Shown here one piece after another: positions 475-63,466 of a stretch of 64,000 nt of DNA. The notes under the pieces were generated by a model, which searched no databases, had not been told where the DNA came from, and saw only the letters and a list, made by a program, of their open reading frames with translations. How positions within the stretch are numbered: position 1 is the first letter of the stretch; every line of letters starts with the position of its first letter. A program made the position numbers and the translations under genes. This stretch comes from Amoebophrya sp. A120. Lineage: Eukaryota; Protista; Dinoflagellata. The DNA lies in assembly GCA_905178155.1 (NCBI GenBank), contig CAJINV010000010.1:1378094-1442093 (forward strand), read 5' to 3'.

Positions 475-3400
475 ATGGCACAAAACTCTTCATCTCCAGA
501 GCTGCAAGTGCAAGGACAACCTGTGCTACTCCCTGGAGACGAACAACCCCAAGACCGAGATGAACAAGAGCAACATCATGACCGCGCGGCACAAGAACAA
601 CTCCACCCAGGACGAGGAGAGCAGGTCGTCGAGATGGGTTTTTTTTCCGGAGCGGGAGCTGCACACGGTCGCGGTACAACGAGGACTTTTGGGAAATATG
701 ACCAGGAACAAGATGCACCCGAGGGATCGCGGAGAAATCCAAATCCTCGTGCCAGAGAAGGAAGAAATACTGAACGAGGCGTCGCTGTACTACCGCAGGA
801 GGACGAGGACCAAAAATCTTCAACCGCTGCACTTGCACGATTTCTGAACATTGTGCCAACACATCTACCGACTGGAGGCTCTGGTAGCCCGCGCAGCAGC
901 GCCGGCGAATTAGATCATGATCGTCTCGAAGGCTCTCGTCAAAGTGGAGACGTCGAGTCCATCTCTCCTCCCGGTTCGCCGAAATGGAACGCAGAAATTT
1001 CGCCGGATATGGGAGTGTCAGGATCGAAATCGACAAAATCGAAAAAATTGCAATGCATAAAATGTAGAGCGCGCTGCATGGCCTGTGTTGGGGAGCAAGC
1101 AAATGAACCTGTTTAGGGGTTCACGGCCTTTCGATTGCAAGCCTGTTTGGGGGAAGGCGATGTGCTGCCAGAGCAGCATCACAAGAGCAGTCTCCTTTCC
1201 CCGAACAGCATGACAGACTGGATTTTTGTGCTCCTAAAATTTGTCATGCGCCGCTGGGAAACAGAGGCTCCAACTGGTATCGATTTTATGCATCACAAGT
1301 TTCATTTCGATTTTGTCGATTTCGATCCTGACACATCTATACCGGACCTGCAGCGGGTATTGTGGGGCATGATGGACAGCGATGAAGATCCCGATCCGGG
1401 TATTGAGAGGAAAAATCCTTCCTCCCCATATCAAAAGGCAATTTCTGATGCTGGATTTGTGTACACAATTGCAGAGAGGCATTGCGGGCAGATCGCCAAG
1501 CTAGGTAGGGGCGTATGGGTCTAGTTGCTCAGCATGGCAAACGGCTCCCCTTTAGGCCCAACAGCGTGGCCAATCGCTTCCATAATGTGGCGGAAGCTTC
1601 TGCCCTTGTCTCCTTGCAAGACAGCTGCGATTTGTGGCCTCAAATCAGCAGCGCAAATTTTCGGAAACATGCCTTTTCAATATGGGGAGGGGGGATTTTT
1701 CCTCTCAATACCGGGGTTCTTGCTGCCCCTTGGGCTGATCCGCGAGGAATCTCCCGGCCCCGGGGGGTCGGACATGCCGTATGTTTTTGAAATGGATACA
1801 TCTTTTGAAGAAGGCCGCGAGGCAACCGCGTCGGGACATAGCCCAGGAGATGATGAACTACAAGCAGGTGGAACAACTAGTACTACACCATCGGGTGAAC
1901 TACAACAAGAACTTCTACAGGCTGAGCACAAGAAGAGCTCGCCGTTTCTTCAGACTGGTCCACCGACGACGTCCTCACCGGCCCACGTTTACAAGGATTT
2001 GCAATCTGCAAAAGCCGCAGAAAAAGAAATGATGTTCCAGCACCGCGACCATGCGGCTGAAGTAGAGGCACAAGAAGCTCGCGCCGCCGTGTTGGCACAA
2101 CGGCGCGGGGATCTGCACATAACAATAGAAAAGCAGTACTGCAGCAACTAGAAACAGTTCGAAGAGGCTTGGTTGAAGAGCTGGAGCGTGCTTTTTTTGG
2201 GGCTGGTTGTTCCCGGAAGTGCAGCCAACGCGCTAACGCCGCGCGATGATGGCAAGCAGCTTGATGGCAACAAAGTACAAAAACAAAAAGGAAGAGCACG
2301 CGTAGCCAGGAACATAAAATGAATAAGAAAAAGCGGCCAGCAGAGCGACCGGCCCACCAACTGCAGCCCAACGCCTAGTGCGCCAGATCCGGCCGGCCTC
2401 TGTAGTGCCAAAAGCCGGGTCAGGTAGAGGTAGATAAGGGCACGCGCTTCCGCTTGGTGCGCCTCACGGTAGGCGTGCCGTCTACCTTCTAGGAAATGGA
2501 AAGCAGACCCGCGCCGGGCGGCCTCCCCTCCTGCTACTTCAGCTACCCAGCAAGCGCGGGCAGCTAGGGCGAGAACGCCAGCGAACCTTTGCGGCCCGCA
2601 AGTAGGTTTTTGTTTTTAGGTGCGACTCCTGGCCGCCGCGTTGGTACTCGTCGTAGCAGGTGGCCGCCCGGCGTGGAAAGAAAACGCTACAACCTGTCGA
2701 AGGCACCTGCGCCGCTGCAACGACGTAACCTCTGCGGCGGCTCACATCTGTTGCCTTCGCATCAGCCCGCCGCTGTGCGCCGAGAGTTTCTCTTGCGTAT
2801 GGTCTTGGGCTTGTTGTGTGCATGCTTTTCCATCCGGGTTGCCCTTCGGCGAGGCTTGGCCCGATATCCTGCAGCAAGCAGCAGGACCACGCAGCTGCTG
2901 GTGGTTGCCTCCCAACAAATCTAAGTAAGAGGCACGCCTGCCAGTGGTGTTTTTGGGTTAGTTTTACTCTCGGCACCGGCGGCCACGCCTCACAGCATGG
3001 AGGCAACAGCCATGCGGCTGGTTGTTTCTGATGTGTTAGCCCCAGCCCCACCGCGGTTGGTTCGTTGATTCTGTGCTCCCGGTATTGGGCTTCCTAGGCA
3101 AGCACCAGGGGCAACAGGAACAGACCGGCCGGGTAGCTGCAGCTGATTAGTGTGAGAAACGATAAAAAAGCCTTTTGGCTGTCGAACTGTAGGTGCTCGC
3201 TATAGGCGGAAGCTGTAGAGCTTAGGCTCTAGAGCATCACCAAACAGCTGTAGAGATTTAGCTCTAGAGATTGAGCTCTACAGGATTTCGAGCTCTAGAG
3301 GCGTTCGCCCTGATCCTTATCAACCTTTTTTCGCAGTAGCGAGCGTGGTGATTCAAAAAAAAATATTAGAAAAAAAAAGGTCATCTCTAGAGATTTGATC

Positions 3401-6400
3401 CTTCTTGGCCCAGGTTTGAGCCTAGTCTGCACCACAGCAGCATGCAGATTTCAAAAATAAAGCAAGTAGCCTTCTTTGAGCCTTTTTCGCTTTCAGGTTT
3501 GACCCTAGTTGCTGCAAGTACTATAGTTCTCTTGGCACCACGACCATGCGGCTGAAGTAGAGGCACAAGAAGCTCGTCAGCCGTATGGAGTTCTCAAATG
3601 TTACATTCTCAACTGTTACATGAATTTGTAATGCAAGACTGGCAAAAGTGAAAGGAGGAAGATTGCGCCTTTTGCATTACAAGTTTGGCGCAGATTTAGG
3701 TGCGGCGTAGCCCTTCGCAAATTTGTCATGCAGAGCAGCTTGATCCTGAGGATGATGATCGTGCTTTTGCATGGCAAATTCATGCAACAGTTGAGAATGT
3801 AACGTTTGAGAACGCCATAAGCCGTCCTACCACGAAAAGAATCTGAGAGTTCCAACACCGATGGTGCCAGCCTACGGAGGACTTCTACATGAGCTCCTGT
3901 ACGAGGAGAATGTACCGTTTTTTCGTTTGGAAGAGCACTCAGATGTTCTTCCGGTGGAAGAAGGACCACTACAAAGCGACGATGTTCATCCGCCAAGAAA
4001 GGCAAAGCATGACACGAGCAGGACCACTTCTCGGGCAAGTCAACATTCTGAAGGGCCGCGGCCACGGGCGGGCTCAGTATCTTCATCTGCCGCGACCGGA
4101 TCCTCTATGGCATTCTCAAACGTTACATTCTCAACTGTTACACGATTTGTCATGCAAAAAGAACATGAGCCGCCAGACGATCAAGCTGCTTCGCAAGACA
4201 CATTACCGAAGGGCTAAACAGCATCTAAATCTGTGCCAAATTTGTGATGCAAGACTTGCAACCCTGCCCCTTTCCCTATTGCTGTTTTTGCATCACAAAT
4301 TCGTGTAACAATTGAGAATGTAACGTTTGAGAACGCCATATCCTCGGTGGGCGGAGTAGGTCTTGCTCGTCCCACTACTCCTACTTGTACCGCTGAGTTG
4401 TACAACCATCAACGTCGGAGCGGCAGCAAGAGCATGAGCCGAGGCAGCAGTATCTTCAACGCCGCTTCAGCCCAGGCGTCCCCTTTGCGGACCGCCACGA
4501 AAACCCCGTCCCCACAGCTTCAGTACGCAGCCATGATGAGCCGCGCCACGAGTAGTGGTCACTTGGGCTTCGTTATTCCAGAAGCTGCCAAAGTTATGAA
4601 CTCCCCGCCAAATAACTTGGGGTCCGGCCCCTCCGGCAGAACTTCACCATTGCACGTGCTGCGGCAAACGGCGATGACGTCTTCGATTGAAATCGGTGGG
4701 CGGGAAAGTCCTCCGCCAGCTTTTTCTTGTACACAGGAAGAAGCTGCAAAAACTGATCGTCAACTTCAGGCCGTCGAGCTGGATGAAACAGAAACATCTT
4801 CGCGTGAGGAGAAGAATGTGAATGGAAATACAAGGCGCGTTTGTGTTGAAGAACAAACACTCGAGGACCATCATGAGCAAGAGGAGCAGGAGCGGATCCT
4901 GCTTCCGCAGCCGGATGATGTTGATATGAGCCATCTTCATGGTGAAGAACAAAAAGATGTTGAACAAGAAGTTTATAATTTTCCCGCCCCGGTGGCAGTG
5001 TCGCCGCAGCTACTGCAGGCGTGTGGACAAGCTGCAGCAGATCATCCTGGAGTTGGGGGGGCAGCTTCTGGAGAAGTAGAACTTGAGATCGAGAGAGTGG
5101 CCAGTCCTGAGCTAGCCGACGGTGCCTACACCAATTTAACCAGCCGCACCAACACGCCGCTGCAGCTTTTTGCGAACACCAATCAGCAGGACAACAACTC
5201 ATTTGCAGCTGGTGGATCTGATTATTATAGCACGAACGTATCCTGTGGAGGTGGTGGTGAACATACGCCGAAACATGATCATCAGCGTCAGCAATTATCC
5301 TCATTTTGTTCCCAGGACGAGAAGAAGGCGGTTTCTTGTACTAGTGCGCCGATCGCGGAAGGCAAGATGAAAATGCACGTCGGTGGCTCGTCCTCTTCGT
5401 CGTCGGCATCTTGCTTCCGCACCGGGGTCGCAGCAGCACGAGCTGGACCAGGTGGTATTCAAGAAGAGAAGTTGTCACCACTTCCGGCCACTCCGACTAC
5501 TTCCCCACGCTACGCTTTTGACCGAGCGAACTCGGGAGAGGGAAGCGTGGAGGAAAACTACAAGAACGATAATTCCGATCTGCCGCCCACAGTCGACCTC
5601 GACCAGTTCTGTTGTAATCCAGCTGATGCTTCTACTAGTGAACAGCATGGTGATGTTCTGCGTCATCTTCGTCTTGACCAGCGTCAAAATCATGAAGAAC
5701 CGCATAAGAAGCCGCTGCTTTATCGCGATCGCCGGAGCTCCTCCTGCACCACTGGTGGCGCTCCTGGGGTTGTTCTTCCACTCTCGGCTGGGGCCGCTGC
5801 ACCGTCGTCCTCTTCGCATTGTACTATTCAGGAGCGTCAACACATGGTGCAGCAACAGCCGGTTCCAGCGCGAAGCGTGCCGCCGATTCATGATTTGTTT
5901 GAGGATGTTGACCACGAAGATGGTGAACAAGATCAACAATACCATGCATACAACAGCTATCGGTGCGGGACCCCTCCTCAGACTCCTTACCCCATTACCG
6001 CGTTCGACGCGCACACGACATTTTTCCGCGCGCCCTTGTCTTCCAGCTCTTCCAAACACTCGGAATCCGCCCTTTCGCTCCCGTCGGACTGCAGACCGAG
6101 CCCGTCGGTGTTGTCGGCCCCGGACCCATCTTTTTTCAGCGACATGCAGCACAACACCTACCCCGCTAGGCGGATTAGTTCCGCGCCGGCGCTGTCCGCT
6201 TTAGCCAGCAGACGCAACAAGCGCGACTTGCCGGGCTTGCAGATAATTTTCCGGCAGAGAAGCGGTACGGGCTCTGTTTCCCCCTCGTGCTCTCCGACTC
6301 CTCTTTCCGCGGCGACGTTGCCCGGTGCAGGAGCTTCCGGGCGACAGGGTGGACAACATCCTGTCGTGAACAAAAACATGCATCACGATGCTAAAGCTCA

Positions 6401-8639
6401 TCCAGTTTCAGAAGCCGCTTGTTCTGTCGTGCCTTCTCATGTCGCTGCTGCTGATCATCTTGTTCCAGGAGGAGTCGTGTTGCCCCTCGGCACAACAATC
6501 GGAAAACAAGAAGAGCAAGGAGCTGCAAAAATCAGCTTTTTGGAGTCGTTAGCTGCACGCGGACCATCAGCTACTTCGTATGCGGGCGGAGCGATCGGCG
6601 AGGATCATCGTGAACATCCCCAGGAACTACAGCAGAGTGATGCAAGCTACCCTGCTTCTCACGGGACGATGTCGAGCACCAGACCTTTTTTGACTGGGAG
6701 ATCCGCTGCACCCTGGCCCTGCAGTCAGGATTGGACGAACTACGGAAAGGCAAACGCGCTTTTGCAATTCCAACGCGGAAATCGTGTTGAACAACATCAG
6801 ACGGAAAGCACACGCGTCGAACAATATCACCAGCCAACAACCGCTCCTGGCATTAAAAATCAGATGCAAGAAGAACACCAGCAGGCACTGCACCACCTCG
6901 AGCTGCAACAGCAGCAACGTCCAACACATGTTGGCGCGTATTACGTCGGAGGAGGTAGTAGTGTGCCATATAATTACAACAACGGAGGAGGAGCACCACC
7001 TCCACCTGCTGGTGCGCCAACTACATCATCTTCGCACGACGTTCTATACCAAGCGCTTCAATTTCAACAACACATCGCACAGCCCCCACCAGCCCTGGTC
7101 GTGCGCAACAAGCCGTCCTGGACTTCTGCGGTCCAGTTACCGGGAGCGGACCTGCCGTTGCGGCAGATCACCGAAGTCGATGAGAAGTTAGAACGGCAAG
7201 AATCCGACGCAGGTACAGTAGTGTCGGTCCTGACGACGTCAAAAGCCTCCTCTGGTGGCCGTCGGGCGGGCGCTGGTGGAGGACCTTCTGGGGAAGTAGA
7301 AACCCTTATTTCTGGAGAGCGGTCGCCGGTCAGTTCCCCGGAGGTTGAAAGTTCGCCGTCGCTGCCCTCACCAGTCCTTCCGCAGGAATATGGATATGTC
7401 AGGATCGAAATCGACCAAATCGAAAAATTTGTGATGCATAAAATGTAGGGCACTGAAGGCCTGTATTGGGGAGCAAGCAAATGAGGCCGATTGTAAGCCT
7501 GTTTAGGGGCATGCAATGTGCTGCCAGAGTAGCATGACAGGAGCAGCCTTCTTTGCCCAAACAGAATGACAGACTCGATGTGGGTGCCCCCGAAATTTGT
7601 CATGTGCCACTTGAAAACTGGGGCTCCAACTGACGTCGATTTTGTGCATCACAAGTTTTTCGATTTTGTCAATTTCGATTCTGACACTTCCATAAGGAAG
7701 AGGATGTTGATATGGCGGGCTCTGAAACTGCGCCGCATAGTATGTTGACACGGGGGGCACAACGAGGACCAAGAGGTCCTCGGACGAGGGCGATGAATGT
7801 GACTCTGCTACCTATTGAGGCTGTGGGCGGTAGTAGCAAGAATGAAACTACTAGCTCAGCAGGATCACGTGGCGCCGCCACCAATTCTTCTGGAGCAGAA
7901 AAAGTGCATTCAGCAACGAGATTGAATGCCGCGACAGCCCCAAATTCAACAGCTTTTCGTTGTAACAAAGTTCAAGCTTTTATGGACACACTCAACGGCA
8001 TCGTCGTGCGGAACCCACCTTACGTACATCCGAAAGTGACCATGGCCGAGCGACGAGCGGTAGTGGTGCAGCGAAGGGCAGAAGAGGAGGACCGGAAGCG
8101 GAAGGAGCTATTTGAACAGCTGAAACACAACACACTGAGAAATCCGGCGATAATTAATGCGAATATCCTGTGCAAAAGTATCGTATTCGTATAAATGCAA
8201 GCCTTGCATTACAAATCTTTGTCTTAAGGTAAATCCGCATTACAAATTTCATTTCTCATGCTGAGAAAATTTGTAATGCATTTCTACGAGTGCGATACTT
8301 TTGCAATTCATAGCGAATTTCCTGGACCAATCTCCGGAGAGCGTGCTCGAATATCAAATGTAAAAATGTCTGGGTCGGTCTGGAAGAATGCATGTTTGTC
8401 ATGCTTGTCTGGCATGACTCTTAAATCTGTCATGCACGTTACCCAAGAGCCCCACTTTTCTGTCATGCAAAAACGCAGTTTGTCATGCAGAATAGGCATC
8501 ATATAGAAGCTCAGAAACTTGTCATGCTGAGCCAGCACCTGTGGCCTCCTCATGATACGCCACCCAGCATCACAAGTTTCCAGACCCAGACACTTTTACA
8601 ATCCATATCGAAGATTTAGACGCCATTGACGCTGCCTAA
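475..8639 (+). CDS. Gene 1: large low-complexity (S/Q/A/P-rich) hypothetical protein, interrupted by 7 short TIR elements and one 1.5-kb insert
   Basis: ORFs 475, 1135, 1525, 3861, 4347 and 7712 join in frame after removing each element +5 nt and 2082-3576 (EISPD|LQRV, DPG|FLLP, EAR|QP|SYHE, TGSS|VGG, PQE|EDVDMAG, NAN|FLDQ, VLE|DLDAIDAA*). Stop at 8637-8639. The start is uncertain, and it could be two genes if 2082-3576 is not removed. Confidence 0.7.
1008..1341. mobile_element. TIR intron-like element, family A
   Basis: TAT..ATA, TIR GTGTCAGGATCGAAATCGACAAAATCGAAA, TSD CCGGA/CCGGA. Confidence 0.95.
1401..1710. mobile_element. TIR intron-like element, family E
   Basis: TIR TATTGAGAGGAAAAATCC, TSD CCGGG/CCGGG. 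Confidence 0.95.
2123..3534. mobile_element. Large TIR element between two copies of a 42-bp direct duplication (2040-2081 and 3535-3576)
   Basis: Imperfect IR CAATAGAAAAGCAGTACTGCAGCAACTAG (2123-2151) versus 3505-3534. The repeat has 1 mismatch. Internal AGAGCTCT/CTCTAGAG array at 3210-3390. Confidence 0.7.
3584..3819. mobile_element. TIR intron-like element, family B
   Basis: TIR TATGG.GTTCTCAAA.GTTACATTCTCAACTGTT, TSD AGCCG/AGCCG. Confidence 0.95.
4106..4340. mobile_element. TIR intron-like element, family B (opposite orientation to 3584)
   Basis: Same TIR, reverse-complement core, TSD TCCTC/TCCTC. Confidence 0.95.
7389..7694. mobile_element. TIR intron-like element, family A
   Basis: TSD AGGAA/AGGAA; homologous to 1008-1341. 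Confidence 0.95.
8164..8312. mobile_element. TIR intron-like element, family C
   Basis: TATNNNNTGCAAAAGTATCG ends, TSD GCGAA/GCGAA. Confidence 0.95.
8352..8607. mobile_element. TIR intron-like element, family H
   Basis: TATNNNNTGTAAAA.TGTCTGGGTC ends, TSD TCGAA/TCGAA. Confidence 0.95.
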
Positions 8640-8948
8640 GCCTGGGACAAGATGAACCTATTGAGTCCGTCGTGGTGTCATGCTGGAAATGATTTGTCTT
8701 TGCCCTGCAGTGATCTTCATCTCCGCTAAATCCTATACCCTGGATCGCACATCACAGGGAACGCAACCTCGCACGCTCATCACATAAACGAGCTACAGTC
8801 GACGTGTTGATGTTGCGCGGAGTTCTGTCTTGTTGTCATTTTTTCCCATGTCGCATCACAAAGTTTGGGAGAACGACGATATATCACGCTTACCTAGTAC
8901 TCAAGTGCGGTTGGTGGTCACTATGTCGATCAGAAAGATGTAGAGTAG

Positions 8949-11900
8949 ATGCAGAGGCTTGTATATTTTCATCCCGTTCTTGTTGTTCATGTTCATCACG
9001 ACCCCGTGTCGCTGACTCTCAGACAGTTCTTCCATTTTCATAATTCAGACGAAAGCCTTCGTACCAGCTTCCAACGCAGCGTGAGCGAGACCATCGGGCA
9101 TCAAGCTGACAGTATGGCAAGCCTGGGAAACCAGCGACAGCAGAACCAAGTTGCAACCCGGATGTCGGCGCTCCACAAGTTTCGCGCAGTGATGAGCGTC
9201 CTTCCGAGCCTAATGAACGATTTGGCGGCGCGGTGGGTGGTTCCTAGTCTCGGACAGAAGAACATGATTAAAAAGAGCAGTGGTCTGATCATGAAGCGGG
9301 GAGGTGGTGCAGCTTCAGCTAGTGCTAGTGTGGGCATCAACATTCCTAAAAGCAGCACTGCTGGCACTGTGCGTCGACCACACTTGGAGGCCACACAGGA
9401 GGAGGAAAGCGAAGAGGAAGATGATGCAGCAGGTGCTGTTCATGCAGATAACGCAAAAGACGCATTTAGCACTGATGTTGGCCTTGACCCTGGTACTAGT
9501 GCTGGTGACACCGGGTCGCTCATAGGCACGGAAGCGGCTGCGATGTCGACTGCAGCAGAGGATCGTGGTGAGGAGGGCCAAAAACTATTTCCGGGTCGTG
9601 CCACGAATCAGCGGTCGCCAGCTGCTGGAGTCCACCGACGCACTTCTAGAGCGGTTGGGCCGGGAGAGGCGATTGAGCTGGACGATGACCCAGTTCATTT
9701 CTTGGGGCGAGAACAAGAAAAAGCTCATGATCCAGACAACGAGTTAGTACCAGAGCAAGTGCAAGGGCAACAAGAACCGCACGGTGAAGTACATCAAGAT
9801 CAGGATGGGCTTTCCTCGACATCCTGCTCCCTTTGCGGGCAAGAGCACCATCAGGACTCGCACGAGCAGCCCTCCGCGCTGCATAAAATGCTGGACGTCG
9901 CAATCAACCAGGTTCTGCAGAACTACGTTGTTTACCCACTTGTCCGGGGGCTCGACACGGTGGAGGAAAAAATCATCGAGCACAGCAGGCGGTCCAGCGC
10001 GCAGAACAGCCCGAGCCTTTCGTTTCAGCACCAAGCGCCCTCGTTTTTCATGCGAACTACTAGTGCGGAGGAGGACCACATCAACTCGGGGACTAATGAT
10101 GGAAAGGATGAAGACGGTGTTGCGCACGGAGCTCCTGAGCGAGATCTTCAGCACATAATGCCTACTGCTTCTACTAGCGCAGCCGCCGGAGGACCACCAA
10201 CATCATCAAATGTTGTCCCAGCAAACGCGCAACAATCGCAGAGCCTGTTGCAATTGAAGATCAACCGCAACAAATCTGCTCCAGCAGGACTGAATCAATT
10301 GGGAAAGAGGACATTAAACGATGGCACTAGTGGGTGTAGTCCTGAGCAGCAGTCGAGCTGCGGTGCGAGCAACCTGAACGACCCGACGGAGACTTCTGAC
10401 TCTGCCACGGTGACATCCGAGCTGACGGCCGGCGTACCTGACCTGGCGCCGGATGACCCTTTGCTACAGGCTTTAGGAGCTGCTTCTCGGCAGGAGCTGC
10501 AACTCGCAGGTGGAGGTGGAAATTCGCATCATCATCAGCTCGTACAACGAGGAAATGGACATCAGCAACCTGCTCCGGCGACACCGTCGAACTCATCAAC
10601 CCGTGGGGCTACCACGTTGATGTCCAGTATGAATCTGAGCACGGTTCTTGGCCCGCGGCTCTCCGCTTTACTGACCATGTTCGTGGAAGCCGACGCGGCG
10701 GACGGTCTGGAGCTGCAGCGCTCCCGCCAGGAAACCGAAGACCGTATGCGCGAGATGCTCTACGCCGGAGTGCGCCGGTGTGGGCTTTTACCCTCGGTGG
10801 AACATCAACCAGAGAAAGACGGCAAGAATTTGGGCCAGGTCCCGGTCGCGCGGAGACAAAGCGAGCCGGGGAATATGGGTAGCGCCTTGCGGATATCAAA
10901 TGTAAAGATGTCTGGGTCTGGAAACTTGTGATGCTGAGTGGCGTAGCATGAGGAGGCCACAAGTGCTGGCTCAGCATGACAAATTTCTGAGCTTGTAGGT
11001 GTTGCCTATTCTGCATGACAAATTGCGTCTCCCCATGACAGAAAAATGCGGCTCTCTGGCAACGTGCATGACAGATTTAATAGTCATGCCAGACAAGCAT
11101 GACAAACATGCATTCTTCCAGGAGACCCAGACACTTTTACATTTGATAGCGGAAGCAAGAAGGTGAACACATGGTGAATCAGAAACAGCTGTTACAGCAG
11201 AGCGGACGCGGGTCGTCTTCTTGTGCGGATGTACTAGAACAAACGGCTTCAAGATCATCATCTTCAAATCAACTTGAACGAAGGGCCAGCACGGGTACCT
11301 CCGCAGCGAGCCATTTGGCGTCTAGCGTACCAAAATCGTCGCTGACCACGCTTCCAGGCGGAGCAGGAGCGAGCAAACCTCCACTTCTGCTGCACCGGGA
11401 GGACAATTCCAGAGACCTGCGAACTACAAACAAGGATAGCGCCGGCTCTGTGGGAGCAGGTGGCTCGGTTGATGCCAGAACATCAAGTTCTAGTGGCAAG
11501 GACGGCACGGCAGGAGCAGGGTCATCTACTTCAGCAATCCCGTTGTACGAGCAGCAAGGTCGTGCTGCTGCAAACAACGGTGGGAAAGGGAATCATGCTG
11601 GAATATTAGATGAGTCTGACTCATTCCCCTCAAACTATGATGCCGATCTGCTGTTTCTCCCGGCCTCCCGATACAAGCTAAGTTTGCCCGTGATTCGCAA
11701 GATGCTCCTCACGATGCACGCCCTGCACCGACGGGCGCACCTTTGTCATGACGACTTTTCCCCGAACTCTTTTCGGATTGACAGCGAAGGAAATCCGATG
11801 CTAATCTCGCTCGAAAGCGCCAAGAAAATTGAGGTATGATAGAAAAGATCATAGTAGCGGCTTTTCAACATTTTCTTTTTCGGGTCTGGAGAGTCAGTGC

Positions 11901-41400: not shown

Positions 41401-42118
41401 TACGGATCGTCAACTCCGCCCGCCTGTGTTGGTATAACGACGCTGCAACTCGCGCTCGCCCACTGAGGACGACTAATTTGCGTTATTTCCCAAGTTCCAG
41501 TCAGACCCGGCCACTCTCTGTCCAAGCAGGAGTAGAACTTCCTCGCGTACTACACGGCCGGGCACGTTGTCGCTACGATTGCTGGTACTTCTCGGACGAC
41601 GCCGGGATTTGCCTCGGAGTAGAGCAACGGCAGGCAGAAAAGCTGCAACACCGCATTCGCCCAAAACACTAGCGGCGATTTTGGACGGCGAGAAAATAAG
41701 ACGGTCGACGAGGAACAAATCTGGCCGTCGAGCAAGAAATCCGTTTCCGTCGCAAGAGCGCGACGACGACGTAAACCACCTACAACTTCCGTCGAAGAGT
41801 AGACCAGTGGAAGCAGCTGCTACTGCTGTTTCTCCGTACAGCTTGTGATCCTTCGTCGCGTCAACGCAATAAAGAAACCACTGGAGTTCGGCGTGGTCTA
41901 CTATCCGTCTACTACGCACAACAGCAGCATTGGCGCTCCTACGACTGCTGGTTTTAGCTGGCGCTTAAGGTACGACAACCACGGACACAGCTACAGACAT
42001 AACAGCGACTACTTTGTCTACTGAATAGAAAACACGTGCTCAGCCACCTCGTAAAGCCGGTACGGAGAGGACGATCCAGCGGGTGTAGCAGCGGGTCCGA
42101 GTAGAACTAGTACGAACC

Positions 42119-45945: not shown

Positions 45946-46702
45946 ATTGCCTGACGGCACTCAAATTTGTTCATGTTTGACATTGGGAAACGGAAACAAA
46001 ACGCTACTCAGATTGGATTCGAACATGCACTATCCTTTTGACGCGGAATTACGAATTTGCACGTGATGAACAACAGTGGTCGATTTCCACTCATCAAACC
46101 AGCACCGGAGGACATCTCATGCTCATTTGGCACCTCCTTGTCGAATGCGAAAAGGATGACGAAACGACACACAGGTGTTCTTCGCCTAATGAAGAAATAT
46201 GAATAAATCGCAAGATATTTTTGAGCCGAGCACTACTTCTATCGTGATCTAAATTGTCGTAATCGTGCTCGTCATTTCGGAACAAACAAGGGGTCGATCG
46301 TGATCGTGATTTTTCGTTTTTGCAACAGTAGTGTCGTTATTTTCGTCTTGTTGATGTTGAAGAAGAAGATCGCTTGAAGATGTTTTGCGAAGGAAGTTTT
46401 CTTGTATATTTCGTTTGCGCTGCTCGTCACAAGAACTTCGTTGGGCCACGAAGAATATCTGAATTGTCGCATACGACTCGTGGATCATATTTTTCAAACT
46501 CGTGTGTGAGTAACTCCTCTTTATCCGGACATTCACGACGTCTCTTTGGTGGAGATTTCTGCTCTCTAACTTCTATGATCTTGATCGTCATCGTCTGGTC
46601 CTCATTTTTTTAGCTGCGGGAACTCGACGAAGAGGAGCTTTTTTTGTACAATGAAAAGTTTCAAACGAAAATAAATTTCCACAACTCCATAAAAGCGCGA
46701 AA

Positions 46703-49700
46703 ATGCCGAAAAAGGAACGGGAAGTTCGCGACGCCCGCATGGGCTACATCGAGGTGGATATCCACCTAAAAAAACCCATCCCCATCCAATTTGTCATGCA
46801 AAATATACATCAGAAGCAGTGTTTATCATGCGAAAAATGAATGGGGATGGGAATGGGTTTTTTTCTGTGGATACTAGATGAGGCTGTGCTAGCCCCGGAG
46901 GACAAGCAGAAACTGGAGCACTATTCCGAGGACATCCTGGCCATGCTGCACCGAAATGACCCGAAAGACCCGAAAACTTTAAGTCTCTTCGGGATCCACT
47001 TCTCCAGGCACTTCTACCGGGACTTCGCGTTCTGCTTCATGCACAACACGCGTACTTATAATTGTTACAGCTCAGATTGTTGTAGTTGTTAACCACTTTC
47101 TTCAACAAATTTCGTTTGTCAGTTTAGCTCGAACAACTACAAGTGAGCAGCCGTGTTTTTGAGGTTGACCTGCTTCAATAGCACCAGCAGTGTGACGATG
47201 ATGAACTTTCTTCGAAAAATATTATAAACCCGTCTACTCAGGTATCCGCAAGCTCCAGCTGGAGAAGTGCAACATCAATGACGTTGCTTGTGTATCCTGC
47301 GCAAAAGAAGTACCGCATGACTCGCACGACTATCTGTAATAGCAATCTGACATGAATAAAAAATTTTGTAAATCTGTATCTGCCCTACAACTACCCGAAT
47401 ACGCATGAAAATGTAAAGAAGTAAATGCTTTATTGCGGAGATGTAGATACTTTCGCGCATTCCATATTGCGAACGACTGGGCTTTATGCTCCGTGAAAAC
47501 CAGGCGGTCCAGGTGCTCTCGCTGAACGAGAACCACATTAAGTCGGTCGGCTGCGGGTTTATCGCACGACTAATGGACAAGGGGTACGGCTCGCAGTCGA
47601 AGTGTGAGCTGACGCATCTGTTCCTGAACCGCAATCATATCGGGCCGGTCGGGGCGAAGTCGCTCGCCATAACCTTGGCGCACAACACCTACCTGCAGTG
47701 CTTAGAAGTCCGGGAAAACTGCATCGATGACTGGGGACTGGGGTGGCTGTGCATGGGTAAGTGAAAAAAGCTTGATAAACTATTTTCTGAAGTAGAGTTT
47801 GACCACGACAAACACAAATACTCCCTCATGCTAAATCAAGATCAACAGTGCGCATTATATCTTGTTTCTCGTGCATTTCTCTCATAATTTTGGTCTTTTG
47901 TTCTCGCAGCGTGTCATTGTGGCAGTGGCTGCGACAATGCCGAAGAAGATGCCCGTGTCTGTCATATTCATTATTAGGTCTGAAATCCAACACCACCCTC
48001 CGGCAACTGGACCTGCAGTCCAATCCGATCGGCGAAAACGGGCGACATATGGATTGCAAAAGTGTCTGGGCCTGGAAGGTTGGAACTTGTAACGCTCGCT
48101 TTCCATACGTAGGAAAGTTGTCATGCTTGGTTGCATTCGGAACTGTGTCCATCATCCACATTTTAGCATCACAAGTTTCCACTTCCAGACCCAGACATAT
48201 TTGCAATTGATACGACACGAGCTGGACGGCTTGAGACACGCAACCGGGAGAGATATCGAAGTGGAGGATCCGATTATCGGCGAAGAATCCCTGAAATTTA
48301 TGTCCTTCGAATACGTCGAAATTCTGCCCCACATGGTGAAGAACGAATCTTCGAGACAAGATCTCCGAAGCTCCAGATCCTCTACTAGAGTCCCATCGCA
48401 TGGATCCAGGTCAAAATCGGGTAGTAGATCCCGACCGACTAGCGCCAGGTCGAGACCGTTATCCGCGCAGTCGTCGAGGAGTGTGACGCTGAATAGCAAC
48501 GGAGTGCCGATTCGGTCTGACGGAAGTTTAGTCAAGGTATAATACGGCGTCTGGGATTTTCCATTTTCTCATGTTGCGTGCTTGATATGAAAAAAGGTAA
48601 TAAAGGATGAATGTGCTAACTATCATGCAGCTGCTGTTGCCTAGGATTTGCTACTCCACTGTAGTTTATTCTTATTCCAAAAACTGCTACTTACATACAT
48701 CAGTCCCAGTCCAAGCGGTCGAAATCGCAGGCGAAGATAAAGAACAAGCTTGGTGCGGTCTATTTCCCCGCGGCTACCAACATGCTGAAGAAATCAAAGG
48801 CGAATAAAGGATCTCCAAGCAAATCCTCATCATCGCGGGCACTTACGCCGAAAAGTCGGACTAGTTCATCTTCTTCCTCCGGCCTCCCCATGCTCATCCC
48901 CGAGACAGAACAGCGACTAGTAGTGCAAATCACGAAATTTGACACTCTCCAGAAGCGTTACAGTTTGGGTAACGGGGAGTCGTACCGACCAACGTTGGCG
49001 GAGATTCGACAGCGAGGATTGACCCCGACGAGAAACAGTTCTCGGCCAAGCACGGGGAATGGCAGAGGTTCGAACCTCACCGGCATGCTGCAAAACGCGG
49101 CTGCCATGAACCGGGCGAGTAGTAGTGGCACGTCGTCACCGAGTAGGAGGAAAAAAGACATCTACAAGCAAGATACGAAGAAGCTCGCGGAATTGGCTTT
49201 GGCGCTGGAGAAATCGCTGCCGCCAGTGATGTCGAAACATCTCCCACCCGCGTACTACGCACCGGATCTGGAATTGGCGGTGCACCCGAGGCCGGGGTCG
49301 GTGTTGCTGCAAGAAATGGACCTGGACGCGGAAAACCAAACGGAATCCATGTCCAGTCCGAGAAGATTGGTGATGGGCGAACGGCGGGAGAGACAACAAT
49401 CCCCGGAAAAGATGGTGGAGGCGAGGAAGAAGTTGCTATCGCCGAAACACAGGAAATTCGCGGAAGACCACTTTGCGCAGAAAGGACAGTATAAATAAAA
49501 CTACTGCGTTGGTGTTTTACTTTGATTTTTGACATGCGACATACTAGACCATTGTTATTCTAAGCTGCATTGAAGATTTGCAATTGAGAAATAGGAACGC
49601 AGCACACCGCTACTGTCCGTCCTATAAGTACTTGCTTTCGCATGGCATCGAAGTAGCACTTTTTTTATCAACAAAATAAACCAGCTTCCGCAAGTCCTAC

Positions 49701-52700
49701 CGGCACCGGTATTCCCCCGAATACGACTTCATGGGTTCCGTCACGCATCACGAGCTCTTTGACAAAATCGCCGCTCGGGCCCAGGCGCAGGAGGACGCAA
49801 AGCTCGCAGTGCAGATGGCGTATGCGAGCGGTGAGATGGACAAACCGGCACTGAAATTGACAAACGGGCCAACGGCGTCTGACAACGTGATCGAATACAT
49901 GTTGAGCAAAAAGCCGAGTAAGGAAACAGACGACGCACGGATGACGGTGCAAGGAGACGAGACGGTCAGTGCGGCGTTGGAACAGGTAGGATATTGCTTG
50001 TATGGGTAGCAGTACTCTTGGTGGGTTTTTTTACTGACTGACAGGCCCCCGATACTTCCATGGTACTAACTTTTGCCTGAGCAGTATGAATTGCTGTTGC
50101 ATCTAACTTTGCAAAATTGAAATTCAATATTGTGGTGCACATTACAATGAAACAACACAGCAACGCGACGCCGAGCGTTTGCAGCGGGAAGCGAGGACGT
50201 TGGCCGAGGAAATTGAGGAATTTGCGGACGATTTTGAAGAAGAAGACGTTTCCTTTGAGCAGCAAATCGAACAGGTGGGAAAGGACGCCGATGAAACTAC
50301 ACGCGATCTCGATATTGATCTACCATTAGAAGGAGCACCAGAAGCAGAAGATCAACATCCACCCGCAGCTACTTCTGCAGAGCAAGAACTCGAAGGCGAG
50401 GACGCGACCTCCGAACAGAAAACCAACTTTGTCCGTTTCGCCACCGGGAATAATAACACAACCACGTTGGAGGAAGAGCAGCAAGAATCCGAAGTTGGGC
50501 ACCAGCCGTCTCAGCACCAGAGCTCGGAACTGTCCGACGTGAACGACCGAGTTACTGGGAGGCGGATAACGGATACCTCTTCTGACGAATTCGCCAGGCC
50601 CGCGGAGTGGAGTCTGCGTGACCCGGCCGGCAATAAACCGAGGTCACCGAAAGACGATGCGGACGGGGGTAGTTCGTCGCCGAAACGAGGCAAGAGGAAC
50701 AAGAACTTTCGGAAGAAGAGGAGCAAGAGCGGTTCTCCGTCCCATTTGAACTCATCGGACGGCGATGTGGAAGATTTGGCGATTGACGAGGATGAAAGTC
50801 CAAGCAAGGCTGGTGGAGTTGTGGCAGAAGCTGCAGCGTCGTCTTCTTCGCAGTCGGGTGTAGCTGTACTTGCGCAGCAAACAACAGAGCTGAAGGAAGA
50901 AGCAGTTGCTGCAGCAACGACTGTGGATGCGCCTGGTGCTTCGGGACAGGGCGCAGTGGTGGAAGATGCTTCTGCAGCTCCGGTGGAGATGAAACTGAAA
51001 GCAGAGGAAACATCAGTGGTAGAGAAGCCATCTACTGATACTGCAACCGCACCAGCAGGAGCAGTGCCCGAACAAGAACCAGTTGAGCAACCAGCCACCA
51101 ATTCTCCCGACGACGAGCTTCCCCAGCAGCGGATCGCGCAGGAGGTCGCGGAAATCCAGCTGCTCTACGGCGCGGAGAGAATCAGCGAATTTTCCGCCGG
51201 CTCGCAGAGCAAGAACACTTCGGAGGCTGGCGACCAGACGGCGAGGTTGTTGGAGGCGGGAGTCCGGGACCACGTGAGCAGCAGCGGTTCTAGCGATGCG
51301 GCGAAAAGCAAAAACATCGATGCCAGTGAAGCACCAACGTTGAACGCGGTGCCGGAAGGGACGGTAGCGTCGTCAGCATATCAAATGCAAAAATGTCTGG
51401 GTCTGGAAGAATGCAAGTTTGTCATGCTTGTCTGGCATGACTCGAGGTCGAGAATCTCTGTTGCATAGGCACGAAAAGGCCCTCTTACCTGTCATGCAAA
51501 AACGCAGCTTGCCATGCCGAATACGTAAGGCATGGCAGCCAAGAAACAAATTTGTCATGCATAGCTGCGTACTGCAGTGCGTCTAGCATTCACTTTTAGC
51601 ATTACAAGTTTCCAGACCAAGACATATTTGCAATCCATACAGCAAGAGAGATCGCAACTGTTGTCCTCGACAACGACAATGAGCAGATTCTGGGAGAAGA
51701 CAGCACACCCGCGGTCGGAGGTGGGGAGAGTGAAGTAGTTGTACCAGCAGGAGCAGAAGCTGTACAACAGGAACCTCCGGAAATAGTACCATCAAAACAA
51801 GAAGGCGATGAAGCTGCAGGAGCACCTACAACTTCAGCAAATGTAGTCGACGACGCCCTGAACCTCGACAACAACGCCCCCTCCCAAACCCTGGAGATCG
51901 AGGCCGAGCACCAAGAGCAGGTCGACAGCCGGAGTACGGTGTCGTCGAAAGCGAAAAGCAACCTCCTGCCCGAGGAGGAGTCGCAGTCACAAATGCAGGA
52001 CGAATCGGTGGTATGCATTACAAAAGCATCGCACTAGTACGAAATGCAATACAAACTTTCTCGTCAGCATGCCAAATGAAATTTGTGATGCGGGTCTCCC
52101 TTAAGAAAGGAATTTGTAATGCTAATGCATGATTGCAATTACTACAACGAGTGTGATACTTTTGCAGAGCATAGTTGGTAAACACAAACAACTTCGAGGT
52201 CGACGGAGGCTCTCTCGCGATATCCACAGTAAATTTCCTGTACACGTACAAATGCAGTCTCTGCATGACAAAACTACTCGCCTTCAATCCTAGTCCAGCA
52301 TGACAAGTTGGACTCTGCAAGGTAGCGAAATTTGTCATGCATTTTGTACATGTACAGGAAATTTACATTGCATACGCGACCTACGACTTACACAACGAAC
52401 AGGGCTCGAACGCACCGGGCAGTAACGCCCCGGGAGAGGTGGCTTTTGTGCCAGGAGGTTCCGCAACAACCGGGGCCGCTGCTCCAGAACCGATTTTTGA
52501 GGACGAAAGTCAGCCGTTTTCTCATCCAGTAGCCGGTGTAGATGAATTAGAGAACAAAGAAGAAACCAAGAACAACTTTATTTCCTCCTCAACGAAGCAG
52601 ACCCATAATTTCCTCCTCTCCGATGCTTCGGCGTCCGCCACGCCCATCCAGCCCCCGACGTTCCGGGAAACGCTATCCTATGTAGAAACTCTCCCCACAG

Positions 52701-53131
52701 CACCGTAGTTGTCATGCAGGTTTGCAATAACAGGAACATTTGTAATGCGCACCTACTACATGAGAGGAATTTACAATCGTGTTTTGGCACTTGTAATGCT
52801 GTAAACAGGATGAGGCGATGAGCTTGCGATGCGACTGTCCTTGCCAACCTGCACTAAACTACAAAGACGAACTTGTCATGCATGGCTACCAAAACTCCTG
52901 GGTTTGTGTTGCCGAGTTCGCAACTTGACTATGGGGTGGGGTCGCTTTTACCAAAGATAAACGATCACAAACAGTTCTTCCGCGCGGGAGAAGGAGATGG
53001 AGGCACTGCGGGCGCGCGACGACGCCGCGGAAAAAGCGGATATTGAGGAAGAAAAGCAGAAAGCGCTGCGGTTGCGGGAGGAATTGGGGCTGGACTCCTC
53101 CGATTTGAGCGGGAGTCAGATGTCGGTATGA
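46703..53131 (+). CDS. Gene 7: N-terminal RNI-like leucine-rich-repeat protein with a long acidic low-complexity C-terminus
   Basis: LRRs IRKLQLEKCNINDVAC, VQVLSLNENHIKSVG, LTHLFLNRNHIGPVGAKSLA, LQCLEVRENCIDDWG and LRQLDLQSNPIGENG. Seven TIR elements plus 5 GT-AG introns (47052-47241, 47757-47977, 48537-48703, 49489-49684, 49986-50160) give one ORF ending SQMSV*. Confidence 0.8.
46759..46873. mobile_element. TIR intron-like element, family F
   Basis: TSD GTGGA/CTAGA; homologous to 27658-27770. Confidence 0.9.
47293..47466. mobile_element. TIR intron-like element, diverged family C
   Basis: TATCCTGCGCAAAAG / CTTTCGCGCATTCCATA ends, TSD TTGTG/TTGCG; splits an LRR. Confidence 0.85.
48048..48212. 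mobile_element. TIR intron-like element, family H (short)
   Basis: TSD CGACA/CGACA. Confidence 0.95.
51379..51639. mobile_element. TIR intron-like element, family H
   Basis: TSD CAGCA/CAGCA. Confidence 0.95.
52012..52173. mobile_element. TIR intron-like element, family C
   Basis: TSD GGTGG/GTTGG. Confidence 0.9.
52221..52374. mobile_element. TIR intron-like element, family G
   Basis: TSD CGCGA/CGCGA. Confidence 0.95.
52674..52959. mobile_element. TIR intron-like element (diverged singleton)
   Basis: Imperfect IR, TSD AACGC/AACGA; removal extends the ORF to the stop at 53129-53131. Confidence 0.8.
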
Positions 53132-55498: not shown

Positions 55499-56281
55499 AT
55501 GCCATCGCGTTTCTCAGCTCTGATCGGCGGGGTGACAGTGCTTAGTTCTGTCCCACAGATGTTGCTAACATTGCTGCTTCACGACCTTTTGGCCCACACA
55601 ACAACCGCATCAGCACTTACACTTTCTTCTAAAAACGCCATCGACGTAAAACGATCCGAATCCCGAGCGCCACCGAAAAACAGCGCCGACACGGAGGCCA
55701 GGAAACGCCTCTTCAAGGAGCCGGGCGAGGAAGGCCAGGAGGATCTCACCGCCAACAGCAAGTACGACTACGCCGCGTCGATGCCGCACGTACCCAACTG
55801 CGACTGCGTGTCGGATTGTTACGCGATGTTGCCTATGAAATGCAAAAGCATCGCACTAAGTAGTGGAAAGCGCATGACAAATTCCCACAGCATGAATACA
55901 AATGGAATTTGTAATGCGGATTTACGTCGTTAAGAAGGAGATTTGTAATGCATGACTGCGACTACTACGAGCACGATACTTTTGCACAGGATACTGCCTC
56001 CCGGAATGCCGGACATCGCCTCGTCCTACGCCTGCCAGAGCGGGGAGCACTACCCGGACCACGATGTTGCAGAGGGGGCGAAGTCGGGGCCGTTTGAGGA
56101 GATGAGTCTCTGCGCCATGTTGGTCAGCGAACGGCTCGGCACGGAACATCTGACCTCCATGGGCCAGTTCTGCGCAACGCACTGCAAGCCGCCGGATAAC
56201 CACTGCGGGGTGGACGGGGTGCATTGCGACTTGGGAGATCGCTGCGTGGATTTGAAGCCGGCCAGCGCGGGGAAGAAGTGA
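55499..56281 (+). CDS. Gene 8: small Cys-rich, possibly secreted protein
   Basis: Hydrophobic N-terminus; CDCVSDC..C..C..C..C..C..C..C spacing. ORFs 55442 and 55952 join (AMLP|PGMP) after removing 55834-55998. Confidence 0.7.
55834..55993. mobile_element. TIR intron-like element, family C
   Basis: TSD TTGCC/CTGCC. Confidence 0.9.
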
Positions 56282-58172: not shown

Positions 58173-59119
58173 ATGTTCTCCGCCCTGTTCGGTTCCTCCA
58201 AGCCTCCCCGCGCGACGTCCGACAACCCCGACCCGCCGGTCAGCAAGGGGTTTTTCGGGACGCACTACGGCCCCCGGGAGAAATTCACGAAAGCGGAGAT
58301 CAAGAAACTGAACCGGCACTACGCGAAGCGCATCAACAAACGGGATCTGTCCTACCAGGAATTCGTCAACCTCCCGGATTGGAACCAAAATCCGTTAGTT
58401 CCCCGGGCCTTGGAGGTTTTGAACAAGGACGTGCGGAATTCCACCGATTTGTCGAAATCGCCGCTGCTACACCTATATGCAGTTCAAAAGTATCGTACTA
58501 GGTGTAGTACAAGTACAACTTGCATGACAAGTTTTCTGAATACAGAAGAAGAGCCAAAGAAATTAGTCATGCACATTCGAGTTGTCAGAAAGCAGATCTG
58601 TCATGCAGTGGTGCAATCACTACGATCGAGTGCGGTGTTTTTGCAATGCATAACCTGCAGGATTTCATCAACGTCTACGAAAAGTTAAGAAACTACCAGA
58701 CGCAGGAAGACAAAATGAAATTCGCCTTTCAGTTGCTGGACTACGATGAGGACGGAGGTACTTGTTTCTACTTCTACGTTATTGTTATGTCGGAACGCAG
58801 GACCACATCAAGCAGTTAGTGTCATGCAGATTGTAAATCGTAATCAGATGGATGACACCTGCACTCTAGTATCATGCGTCGTCTTCTTTCTAGTACCACT
58901 TTATTCTGCTCAACACATCACAATCATAAATCAGGTATCAGCGAGTCCGATCTGACTCATTTCTACGTCTCCGTGACCGGTCTCTCCGAGGACGCAGCAC
59001 GGTACCACGCGCGAGATTTGTTGGACGGGCGGAGTTTCTTGTCCGAAGATGACTTCAACGCGAGCATACCGCTGATTCAGTTCTGCGCCAGGTTTGATTT
59101 ACCGCAGCCGGCGGGATGA
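58173..59119 (+). CDS. Gene 9: calcineurin-B-like EF-hand protein
   Basis: FTKAEIKKLNRHY..LSYQEFVNLPDWNQNPLVPR and EDKMKFAFQLLDYDEDG|GISESDL (EF-hand). One TIR element (58476-58652) and one GT-AG intron (58758-58934). Confidence 0.85.
58476..58652. mobile_element. TIR intron-like element, family C
   Basis: TSD ACCTA/ACCTG; removal restores the calcineurin-B-like sequence LHL|QDFINVY. Confidence 0.9.
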
Positions 59120-61688: not shown

Positions 61689-63466
61689 ATGGCCGCCACT
61701 TCCTCCAGTAGCAACCCCACGGTCATCCCGGCAGCCCTCGCCCCGGGCATGACCCTGAATCCCGGCGCCACGACCGGGCCCCAGCAGACACTCCCCGCGA
61801 ACGCGACACTGGAACAAGCAACCGCTCTGATCCCAGCAGCCGGCGCCACAACCGACCAGCAGCTTCAGACCTACAAAATCCAGCCCGACGGACGGAACCC
61901 ACTGATATCCTGTGCAACTAGAGTATATTATCGTGCGCATTTGCTACTGCAAGAACACGGCAACACAAATTCAAATCTTTATTCCGGGTTGTAGTACCTC
62001 TACCTCTTCCACCATTTGCAACTGCATCACATTTACGACCTTCTGTTTTCTTCTCAGTGAAAGTTGTGACTCAATTCTTACTTCTACGCCCGATGCTAGT
62101 ACTCTTTAGCAATGCATACTTGGAGTGTTTCGCGCATTTCCAGAAACACGGGAAGTTCGGGATTTTGGAACCAATAGAGAAGAACCGAACCTCGGCCTGG
62201 GAACCGTTTGTCGACGCGATTCTGCAGCTATCGAGGGAAAGAAATAGAGTTATCGTACTTGTAGTACTGGTGGCTGTCATGCATGACAAAAAATCTTATG
62301 CGTGTGCTCGTGCTGTCATATTTTGCATGGAGTCTTTCAACATTACTTGTTGAGAAGGCTCAGAAGATCACTGCGAAGATGAGCCTTTACGTACGTACGA
62401 TGCCAGTTTTCCGATGCATATGAGCAGGGCGAAAACGATATCAAATGCAAATATGTCTGAGTTGTCTGGAAGGGTGCAACGTCTGTCATGCACATTTTAC
62501 CTGACTCCTGATGTCTGTGATGCATGCCCTAGCATCACAGATTTTATGAGGGCTTCCTGCTGCCTATACCGCATGAGAAATGCCCTCCCGCCGTGGCAAA
62601 AACTGAACCTCTTTTGCTGTTCATGCAATACAGATTTTTGTAGTTTCCAGAGTCAGCATCTTCACAAGTTCTAGACCCAGACATATTTGCAATGCATAAA
62701 CGACATGAAGCTGGTCACGTCAAAGGACAAGGACGGGGCGGCCTACGTGAGTCCGGAGGGGAAAGAAATGACAGCAAACGAGTACTGGCGGCAGAAAAAA
62801 TACGACGAGTGCATGTTTAAATTTGAAGACGACGCGTATAACTTCGCCAAACAACGCTACAAACTGGAACTTCTCCGGTTGAACCGCGGCCACGACAGCA
62901 TGGACGGTGGAGCGCTGTGGTTGGGCAGAGCATTGATTTGCAAGGACACGGTATATGCTACTGTAGTAGTTGTTTCGTGTTGATTTCTCAGCGTATTGTG
63001 TTTGTCGTTTGATGTAGTAATAGCGAATATATTGAGTTTTTTCATTCTTTGTAGCTTACACGCATAAAGTTGTTCGTAGGCATCACGCACAAGCGCAACT
63101 TTTGCTCTGAAAAGGAGCTGATTTTACATGTTTTATGATGCAGTTTCTTGATACAAGTGTGATTTCTGAAAATTTACATTTCTGCAAAATGTCGTTTATT
63201 TTCCCATATGCATCAAAACGCAGGTATGGCTCGCGTTGTGGGGCAAATCCATGAATCGGTTCACCGTGGTGTTGGATACGCTGCGACAGCGAAACGTGTT
63301 CTGTGACACGCGGATGGAGTATCGACCCCCGGTGGTGCTGCCGAGGCCCTTCATGCAGCTGACGCTGAACCACACCGAGCGACCCGAGGTCTTGAAAGAA
63401 TTGGTGAATTTTGCGCTGAACGGGTTGCCAATACACGTCGTGGACCTGCGGGACGGTTACAACTGA
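61689..63466 (+). CDS. Gene 10: hypothetical protein
   Basis: ORFs 61647, 62057, 62687 and 63236 join via elements 61906-62118 and 62439-62698, a degenerate one at about 62229-62393, and a GT-AG intron 62951-63223. Confidence 0.65.
61906..62118. mobile_element. TIR intron-like element, diverged family C
   Basis: TATCCTGTGCAA / TAGCAATGCATA ends. The TSD has decayed (ACTGA/CTTGG), but +5 removal restores the frame. Confidence 0.7.
62439..62698. mobile_element. TIR intron-like element, family H
   Basis: TSD AACGA/AACGA. Confidence 0.95.

Follow-up and report, generated by a model that had tools for sequence, protein, structure and literature searches.

How can genes be translated when their exons are interrupted over and over by inverted-repeat elements without GT-AG ends, and what takes these elements out? 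In the window, the whole 64,000-nucleotide stretch of Amoebophrya sp. A120 contig CAJINV010000010.1 analysed here, we recovered all 38 elements that a first-pass annotation had described as TAT..ATA inserts of 113-334 bp with one TAC start. Each is bounded by terminal inverted repeats and flanked by a 5-bp repeat, and TAT begins 75 of the 76 element ends, the sole exception being the TAC at 27122. The flanking 5-mers, rightly described before as exact or decayed, are identical at 5/5 positions in 22 elements, 4/5 in 11, 3/5 in 4 and 2/5 in 1, and AAA occupies end positions 11-13 in 52 of the 76 ends. With the inverted-repeat score as the sole selection, 30 pairs were obtained, 21 with an exact 5-bp repeat, whereas none of 10 dinucleotide shuffles put through the same selection yielded a pair. 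Flanking repeats that are exact over 3, 4, 6, 7 or 8 bp were found in 0 of 39 candidates. The 39th candidate (23948-24063) was dropped and an AT-rich one (28624-28972) rejected, both with a flanking repeat of 0/5. Clustering at 50% coverage placed 30 of the 38 elements in 7 multi-member groups and left 8 singletons. Family members lie in both orientations within plus-strand genes, and summed sequence depth is very high over the elements, which are repeated in the genome. Rfam gave 0 matches.

The window elements are the introner elements of Amoebophrya sp. A120 that have already been published, and the system is known. The first pass had pointed to a likeness with introners reported in Amoebophrya, which is correct, yet these are the published A120 elements themselves, because three window exons match protein records deposited under the name Amoebophrya sp. 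A120 with 100% identity and the ends carry the published motif. Farhat et al. (2021; PMC7789003) describe A120 introners with TAT + 7 nt + AAA, 3-5 nt direct repeats and a hairpin, count 29,850 such repeated introns and 1,954 families with no transposase, report junction reads at element plus 5 nt genome-wide for most elements, and give an identical repeat layout for 15% of canonical A120 introns. With these introners the window elements share the organism, the TAT-N7-AAA ends, the direct repeats, the hairpin, repetition, non-GT-AG removal, GT-AG introns in the same gene and the lack of a transposase, and there is no difference of kind; in the window every repeat spans 5 nt (33/38 with 4/5 or better identity) and abuts TAT..ATA. 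Both the A120 elements and their removal are on record.

The elements resemble several other systems. MITE-derived introns of Fritillaria borealis likewise combine TIRs and TSDs with non-GT-AG ends and are removed by an adapted U2 spliceosome (PMC11282704), but they have prevalent end pairs (AG-AC, AG-AT), whereas the window elements have no common end dinucleotide. Euglenid nonconventional introns share a terminal stem, slidable direct repeats, a MITE-like origin and coexistence with GT-AG introns (PMC12501133; PMC11282704), but have CAG/CTG motifs and a circular product, whereas the window elements end in TAT..ATA and lack CAG/CTG end pairing. IS3EU/GingerRoot DNA transposons also have TA..TA termini, but their TSD is usually 6 bp (PMC10045372), as against 5 bp and no linked transposase here; identity with them was rejected on TSD length, a 6-bp TSD occurring in 0/39 window candidates and 0/304 metagenome elements. 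An integrase-like TIR element has been reported among A120 introners (PMC12130899).

Being short, multi-copy and bounded by TIRs and a TSD of fixed length, the elements look like MITEs, and the MITE-like origin proposed at first pass is strengthened by the metagenome, where 239 of 304 elements have an exact 5-bp repeat. They are non-coding inserts, likely non-autonomous DNA transposons, and lie in exons between 5-bp duplications. A transposase reading frame bounded by the same TIRs, which the first pass had proposed looking for, was found neither in the window nor in 163 metagenome loci. Pfam scans of 31 window frames and 3 L021 frames turned up neither a transposase nor an integrase, one 1104-bp element had no Pfam match in the 3 frames scanned, and viral contigs gave 0 matches to one element end pattern. 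The 163 metagenome loci had no match to the window outside the elements.

The length of element plus 5 nt is not divisible by 3 in 27/38 elements, a recount that equals the earlier figure. Removal of element plus 5 nt joins open reading frames of 1913, 1301, 932 and 713 codons across 10, 5, 5 and 4 elements, respectively. Compared with +3 or +4, it produced the longest frame for 35 of the 39 candidates (34 among the 38 kept), neighbouring elements having been removed with +5, a bias towards that outcome. The same test was weaker in the metagenome (+5 alone best in 110/199, +3 in 44, +4 in 41), perhaps owing to undetected neighbouring introns. Database proteins P0001-P0004 lack all 26 covered elements as element plus 5 nt (2 only as summed length) and agree residue for residue with the predicted joins at 26/26 junctions, which supports the earlier claim of exact removal without GT-AG boundaries.

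The four genes lie on the plus strand. P0004 (9162-16122; kinase-like, 1729 aa) holds one GT-AG intron (11834-12035) and 6 elements, at 10894-11148 (flanks GCGGA/GCGGA), 12273-12431 (AACAG/AGCAG), 12515-12789 (AGCGG/AGTGG), 12886-13106 (GGCTT/GTCTT), 13179-13489 (TTTCT/TTTCT) and 15484-15804 (CTGGA/ATGGA). The coding part of P0001 (30788-38442; 1888 aa, no Pfam family) has no intron other than its 10 elements, at 32219-32368 (ATGTT/ATGTT), 32422-32648 (CCGGG/TCGGA), 34026-34336 (CGTGA/CGTGA), 34386-34536 (AATGG/AATGG), 34858-35029 (GGAGC/GGCGC), 35737-35997 (CAGCA/CAGCA), 36111-36269 (AAACG/AAACG), 36536-36693 (TCACG/TCACG), 37152-37346 (ACTGA/ACTGA) and 37399-37555 (TGTTG/CGTTG). The LRR protein P0003 (46703-53128; 1375 aa) has 5 GT-AG introns and 7 elements, at 46759-46873 (GTGGA/CTAGA), 47293-47466 (decayed; TTGTG/TTGCG), 48048-48212 (CGACA/CGACA), 51379-51639 (CAGCA/CAGCA), 52012-52173 (GGTGG/GTTGG), 52221-52374 (CGCGA/CGCGA) and 52674-52959 (AACGC/AACGA). 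P0002 (61689-63463; 274 aa) has one GT-AG intron and 3 elements, at 61906-62118 (decayed; ACTGA/CTTGG), 62229-62420 (decayed; GCAGC/TGAGC) and 62439-62698 (AACGA/AACGA). Outside these genes lie elements at 1008-1341 (CCGGA/CCGGA), 1401-1710 (CCGGG/CCGGG), 3584-3819 (AGCCG/AGCCG), 4106-4340 (TCCTC/TCCTC), 7389-7694 (AGGAA/AGGAA), 8164-8312 (GCGAA/GCGAA), 8352-8607 (TCGAA/TCGAA), 24118-24278 (TCTTC/TCTTC), 27122-27399 (the TAC start; AAGAA/ACTAA), 27658-27770 (ACGAT/ACGAT), 55834-55993 (TTGCC/CTGCC) and 58476-58652 (ACCTA/ACCTG). Kinase, LRR and EF-hand domains had been named at first pass; Pfam matched the LRR in P0003, matched the kinase weakly (27.3 bits, where the cut-off is 31.7; for one exon 23.8, where it is 23.1) and did not match an EF-hand.

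Evidence closer to the transcript agrees where it applies. RNA-like contig pieces stop at 10893 and 11149, both edges of the first P0004 element, and others begin at 15806, which fits retention of the upstream C at 15484-15804; the RNA status of runs X3, X5, X7 and X8 is a tool guess, the joined letters were not displayed, and this read-level evidence covers 2/38 elements, or 2 of the 13 compared. An RNA-like X3 contig also ends at 11831, by the GT-AG intron. Raw RNA reads of X9 aligned partly, on element ends, and were uninformative on junctions, and no junction of interest was among the best 15 of 1151 joints, where element copies from other loci took the places. Taken jointly, the identity with A120 introners and removal at the RNA level seem to us nearly certain.

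Where the cut falls can be read from the imperfect repeats. Among the 26 covered junctions 13 have imperfect repeats, 11 of them informative, and the sole common cut lies after repeat base 3 or 4, a register taken from gene models built on transcript alignments, not from reads: the models require a cut after base 3 or later at 12515 and after base 4 or earlier at 52674 and 61906, and the single covered base-4 mismatch, at 47293, is silent. The modest novelty of this study is that imperfect repeats appear to point to one fixed register, whereas the Fig. 3 legend in Farhat et al. (PMC7789003) calls the splice sites variable or unknown. A GT-AG register lies inside the repeat in 1/38 elements (52012) and three others offer GC-AG or GA-AG; the database proteins leave GT-AG at 52012, GC-AG at 12886 and GA-AG at 34858 unused, so that of U2-type ends the one GT-AG and one GC-AG register among the 38 are both ruled out. 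U12-type ends do not characterize the set, AT-AC being available in 1/38. The earlier statement that the duplications share no GT or AG thus stands in that there is no common end dinucleotide, but not for 52012 and the three GC-AG/GA-AG registers. In 183 strand-called metagenome elements the duplication has no base preference beyond that of the flanks and no trace of selection for G+1 or AG, which runs counter to a spliceosome; a G or purine enrichment that the window shows at repeat bases 4-5 was gone in these 183 elements.

We favour removal from pre-mRNA by a relaxed U2-type spliceosome that is guided by the hairpin and has ceased to read either the initial G or the terminal AG, with a probability of roughly 0.55. 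A transposase from elsewhere would insert the elements through a 5-nt staggered cut; the ends would pair as a hairpin and bring the exons together in either orientation; cuts would fall in a fixed register, most likely 1 base before TAT and 4 after ATA, so that sequence worth one duplication would remain in the mRNA; and the TAT end would replace donor positions +2 to +4 (N-TAT versus GTAT). Of the GT-AG introns mapped in the window 7/7 start GTA and 4/7 GTAT, and a cut after base 4 would give N-TAT donors resembling these minus the G, although TAT may be merely a transposase end signal. In Farhat et al. (PMC7789003), T is second in all nine commonest non-canonical A120 pairs (Table S4), A25 introns start TT, and A25 repeats begin TTA plus two purines, which, judged by sequence, might be read as GTAAG minus its G. 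The hairpin z is below -2 in 33/38 elements; predicted pairing is lowest at end positions 4-9 (0.38-0.63, versus 0.82-0.84 at positions 10-13), and therefore the extreme ends may fray. TAT is predicted to be paired in 27/38 elements, which would conceal a donor and speak against a spliceosome. Farhat et al. (PMC7789003) report a near-complete spliceosome, absent minor snRNAs and a U1 snRNA undetected in A120, the last again counter to spliceosomal removal.

The excision pathway had been called dedicated at first pass; a relaxed spliceosome accounts for the data no less well. Such a dedicated route could be a separate, non-spliceosomal endonuclease and ligase that recognise the terminal stem and cut at fixed distances, and we regard these separate enzymes as a serious but less probable explanation. 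They would account for cut sites without base preference in the 183 elements, for strong hairpins and tolerance of both orientations, for why canonical-looking registers at 12886, 34858 and 52012 go unused, and for the undetected U1 (Farhat et al., PMC7789003), and a similar pathway has been suggested for euglenid nonconventional introns, which are released as circles (PMC11282704). However, no candidate enzyme was identified, in A120 as in A25 the likely register gives N-TA, which resembles a donor, and hairpins are decayed in 5/38 elements (z above -2), yet those at 34858, 47293 and 62229, and also 52674, are absent from the models. Splicing at nearby cryptic GT/AG sites or edited ends, or host genes that are pseudogenes, is very improbable: a frame-keeping GT-AG pair does lie within ~20 nt of 32/38 elements, and Farhat et al. 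(PMC7789003) found possible editing at 2-4% of intron boundaries. However, the proteins match the element-plus-5 join at 26/26 junctions, the one GT-AG register in a repeat is ruled out by its model, and RNA-like pieces end exactly at predicted joints. Excision from DNA in some life stage, as with the internal eliminated sequences of ciliates, is more improbable still: the transposon-like ends and the guessed RNA status of X3 and X5 would suit it, but DNA-like contigs of ~45-fold depth extend from flanking exons into elements, and the same X3 contig also ends at a GT-AG intron, though rare empty DNA forms may exist beyond the best 15 of 1151 joints.

For the mode of excision, imperfect 5-bp duplications offer a cheap handle, as they disclose the cut position. 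If one register held genome-wide, it would give a rule by which A120 introns could be annotated by the tens of thousands, and would tell a new excision enzyme apart from a relaxed spliceosome. Tentatively, and at somewhat less than even odds, we propose that the Amoebophrya spliceosome disregards the dinucleotides at both intron ends and gauges its cuts from the end of the transposon, that every A120 element is cut 1 base before TAT and 4 after ATA, and that the introner ends of A120 (N-TAT) and those, unrelated, of A25 (TTA-RR) each contribute T+2 and A+3, the core of a GTA donor. If this is true, imperfect duplications would allow a genome-wide test with existing RNA data, and any transposon with such ends would make a perfect intron wherever in an exon it landed and whichever way round.

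The TAT..ATA inverted-repeat elements are real, precisely removed and already known, being the introner elements described for A120 by Farhat et al. (2021; PMC7789003), who report repeats of the form TAT + 7 nt + AAA, direct repeats of 3-5 nt and RNA support, and neither a U1 snRNA nor a transposase in A120. Scanning for TAT..ATA pairs whose ends are complementary gave 31 candidates and relaxed scans eight more; one of these 39, 23948-24063, was excluded for absence of the flanking repeat, leaving 38 elements (113-334 bp), the number counted in the first-pass annotation. The left end of the excluded candidate equals a known element over 16 bases with no matching right end, and it is a truncated or decayed element. 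Beside it and element 24118 lies a weak tRNA-synt_2b match (Pfam, E 0.0035; 24286-25316), whose pieces, which we take to resemble threonyl-tRNA synthetase, may be a partial copy. Palindromic CCTTAAGG-like short repeats also occur in a run at 1-200.

TAT begins 75 of the 76 element ends, and the flanking 5-mers match fully in 22/38 elements and at four of five bases in 11/38. When pairs were selected by inverted-repeat score alone, 21 of 30 carried an exact 5-bp repeat, and the same selection on 10 shuffles yielded 0 pairs; no exact flanking repeat of 3, 4, 6, 7 or 8 bases was found among the elements tested. Clustering gave seven multi-member groups, with both orientations among their members, and eight singletons. 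A single end pattern retrieved 166 metagenome stretches, 163 of them used as loci (a sample biased to the family searched), in which inverted-repeat score alone identified 304 distinct elements, 239 with an exact 5-bp repeat; identity with the window elements reached 96%. The motif TTTGT[CG]ATGCA is common to the elements (76 of 91 window matches lie inside a 35-element list) and is present in 261/286 metagenome elements across otherwise unrelated families, often 30-50 nt from an element end in both samples; it is possibly a transposase site. No transposase was found in the window or the 163 loci. Locus L021 holds a 1104-bp TAT..ATA element (105-1208) with an exact 5-bp repeat, internal repeats and no Pfam match in three frames.

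Removed length (element+5 nt) is not a multiple of 3 in 27/38 elements, and its deletion joins frames of 1913, 1301, 932 and 713 codons. Proteins named Amoebophrya sp. A120 match three exons at 100% identity, and P0004 is identical to a fourth. When proteins were mapped back to the window, all 26 elements covered by P0001-P0004, which are gene models and not reads, were absent as element+5 nt, 62229 and 62439 being counted only as a summed 462 nt; the same mapping showed seven ordinary GT-AG introns. The exact removal claimed in the first-pass annotation is borne out by 26/26 model junctions and long joined frames; among its host domains, Pfam recovered the LRR, matched the kinase weakly and gave no EF-hand. 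The A120 models were derived from transcript alignments, according to the methods text of Farhat et al. (PMC7789003). The P0002 model retains an 18-nt micro-exon (62421-62438) between two elements. Removal at +5 beats +3 and +4 in 35/39 candidates in a frame test where neighbours were themselves deleted at +5, a caveat to this figure, and the test is weaker in metagenome elements (110/199).

Contigs were compared over bases 1-17000, which hold 13 elements. In runs X3 and X5, which are RNA-like (one sample, whose RNA status is a guess), pieces end at 10893 and begin at 11149 and 15806, with extra letters beyond, at the positions predicted by element+5 removal; this support covers 2 of 13 elements and draws on 24 of 20,771 pieces, joined letters not included. 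One piece also ends at 11831, by the GT-AG intron 11834-12035, whose ends are slidable by two bases. The break at 15806 and not 15805 implies that the upstream C of CTGGA/ATGGA is retained. Over the elements, depth exceeds unique depth by a factor of hundreds to thousands, which indicates many related copies and implies no copy number. RNA-like contigs of 5.4-5.6 kb (depth ~42, versus 5-12 over upstream exons) cover the last exon of the kinase gene from 15806 and extend past its stop at 16122 to 17000, the end of the region compared.

A 36-bp in-frame direct repeat (2046-2081 and 3541-3576; 42 bp at 98%) flanks a 1495-nt stretch, omission of which fuses the frame at 463 with that at 3527 to give 1606 codons. 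It has diverged copies in X1, X3 and X5 and no Pfam match in the four frames scanned, and could represent a second and longer class of insert or intron.

Anatomy, host, removed length and free terminal bases are established. Predicted hairpins have z below -2 in 33/38 elements; TAT is predicted paired in 27/38, with pairing weakest at positions 4-9. A transposase would insert the element with a 5-nt stagger, the hairpin would draw the flanking exons together, and cutting would occur at a fixed register. Among 13 imperfect repeats covered by proteins, 11 of them informative, cuts after base 0, 1, 2, 3, 4 and 5 of the repeat fitted 4, 8, 11, 13, 13 and 11 junctions, base 3 or base 4 alone being compatible with all 13. 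By our own arithmetic, uniform random cutting has a ~2.5% chance of passing all 11 informative cases, so that this evidence is modest. The models exclude the available after-base-1 registers in 3/3 cases (GT-AG at 52012, GC-AG at 12886, GA-AG at 34858).

We favor excision by a relaxed U2-type spliceosome, at a probability of roughly 0.55. A cut after base 4 gives an intron start of N-TAT, and the canonical donors mapped start with GTA in 7/7 and with GTAT in 4/7. In the spliceosome, U6 makes contact with the U at donor position +2 and the A at +3. In Table S4 of Farhat et al. (PMC7789003), T is second in all nine commonest non-canonical A120 pairs, and the same source gives TT starts for introns of the A25 genome, with repeats of TTA + two purines. 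Excision by a separate nuclease and ligase is a less probable alternative; in 183 strand-called metagenome elements the repeats have the base composition of their flanks, giving no hint that G+1 or AG is selected for, nor was the base bias of the window repeats reproduced there. The literature searched, whose coverage leaves out most subscription papers, yielded no paper resolving the excision machinery; it included excerpts of PMC12130899, PMC9860276, PMC12005148, PMC10045372, PMC12501133 and PMC11282704, and listed the preprint 10.1101/2020.10.14.339549. Use of cryptic splice sites, or pseudogene hosts, appears very improbable. Least probable of all is excision from DNA; over bases 1-17000 of the DNA-like run X1, unique contigs enter the elements from the flanking exons.

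The cut register may already be displayed in Fig. 3 or Figs S19-S25 of Farhat et al. As a lead it is testable, and it is the part of interest beyond the known introner system of Amoebophrya.
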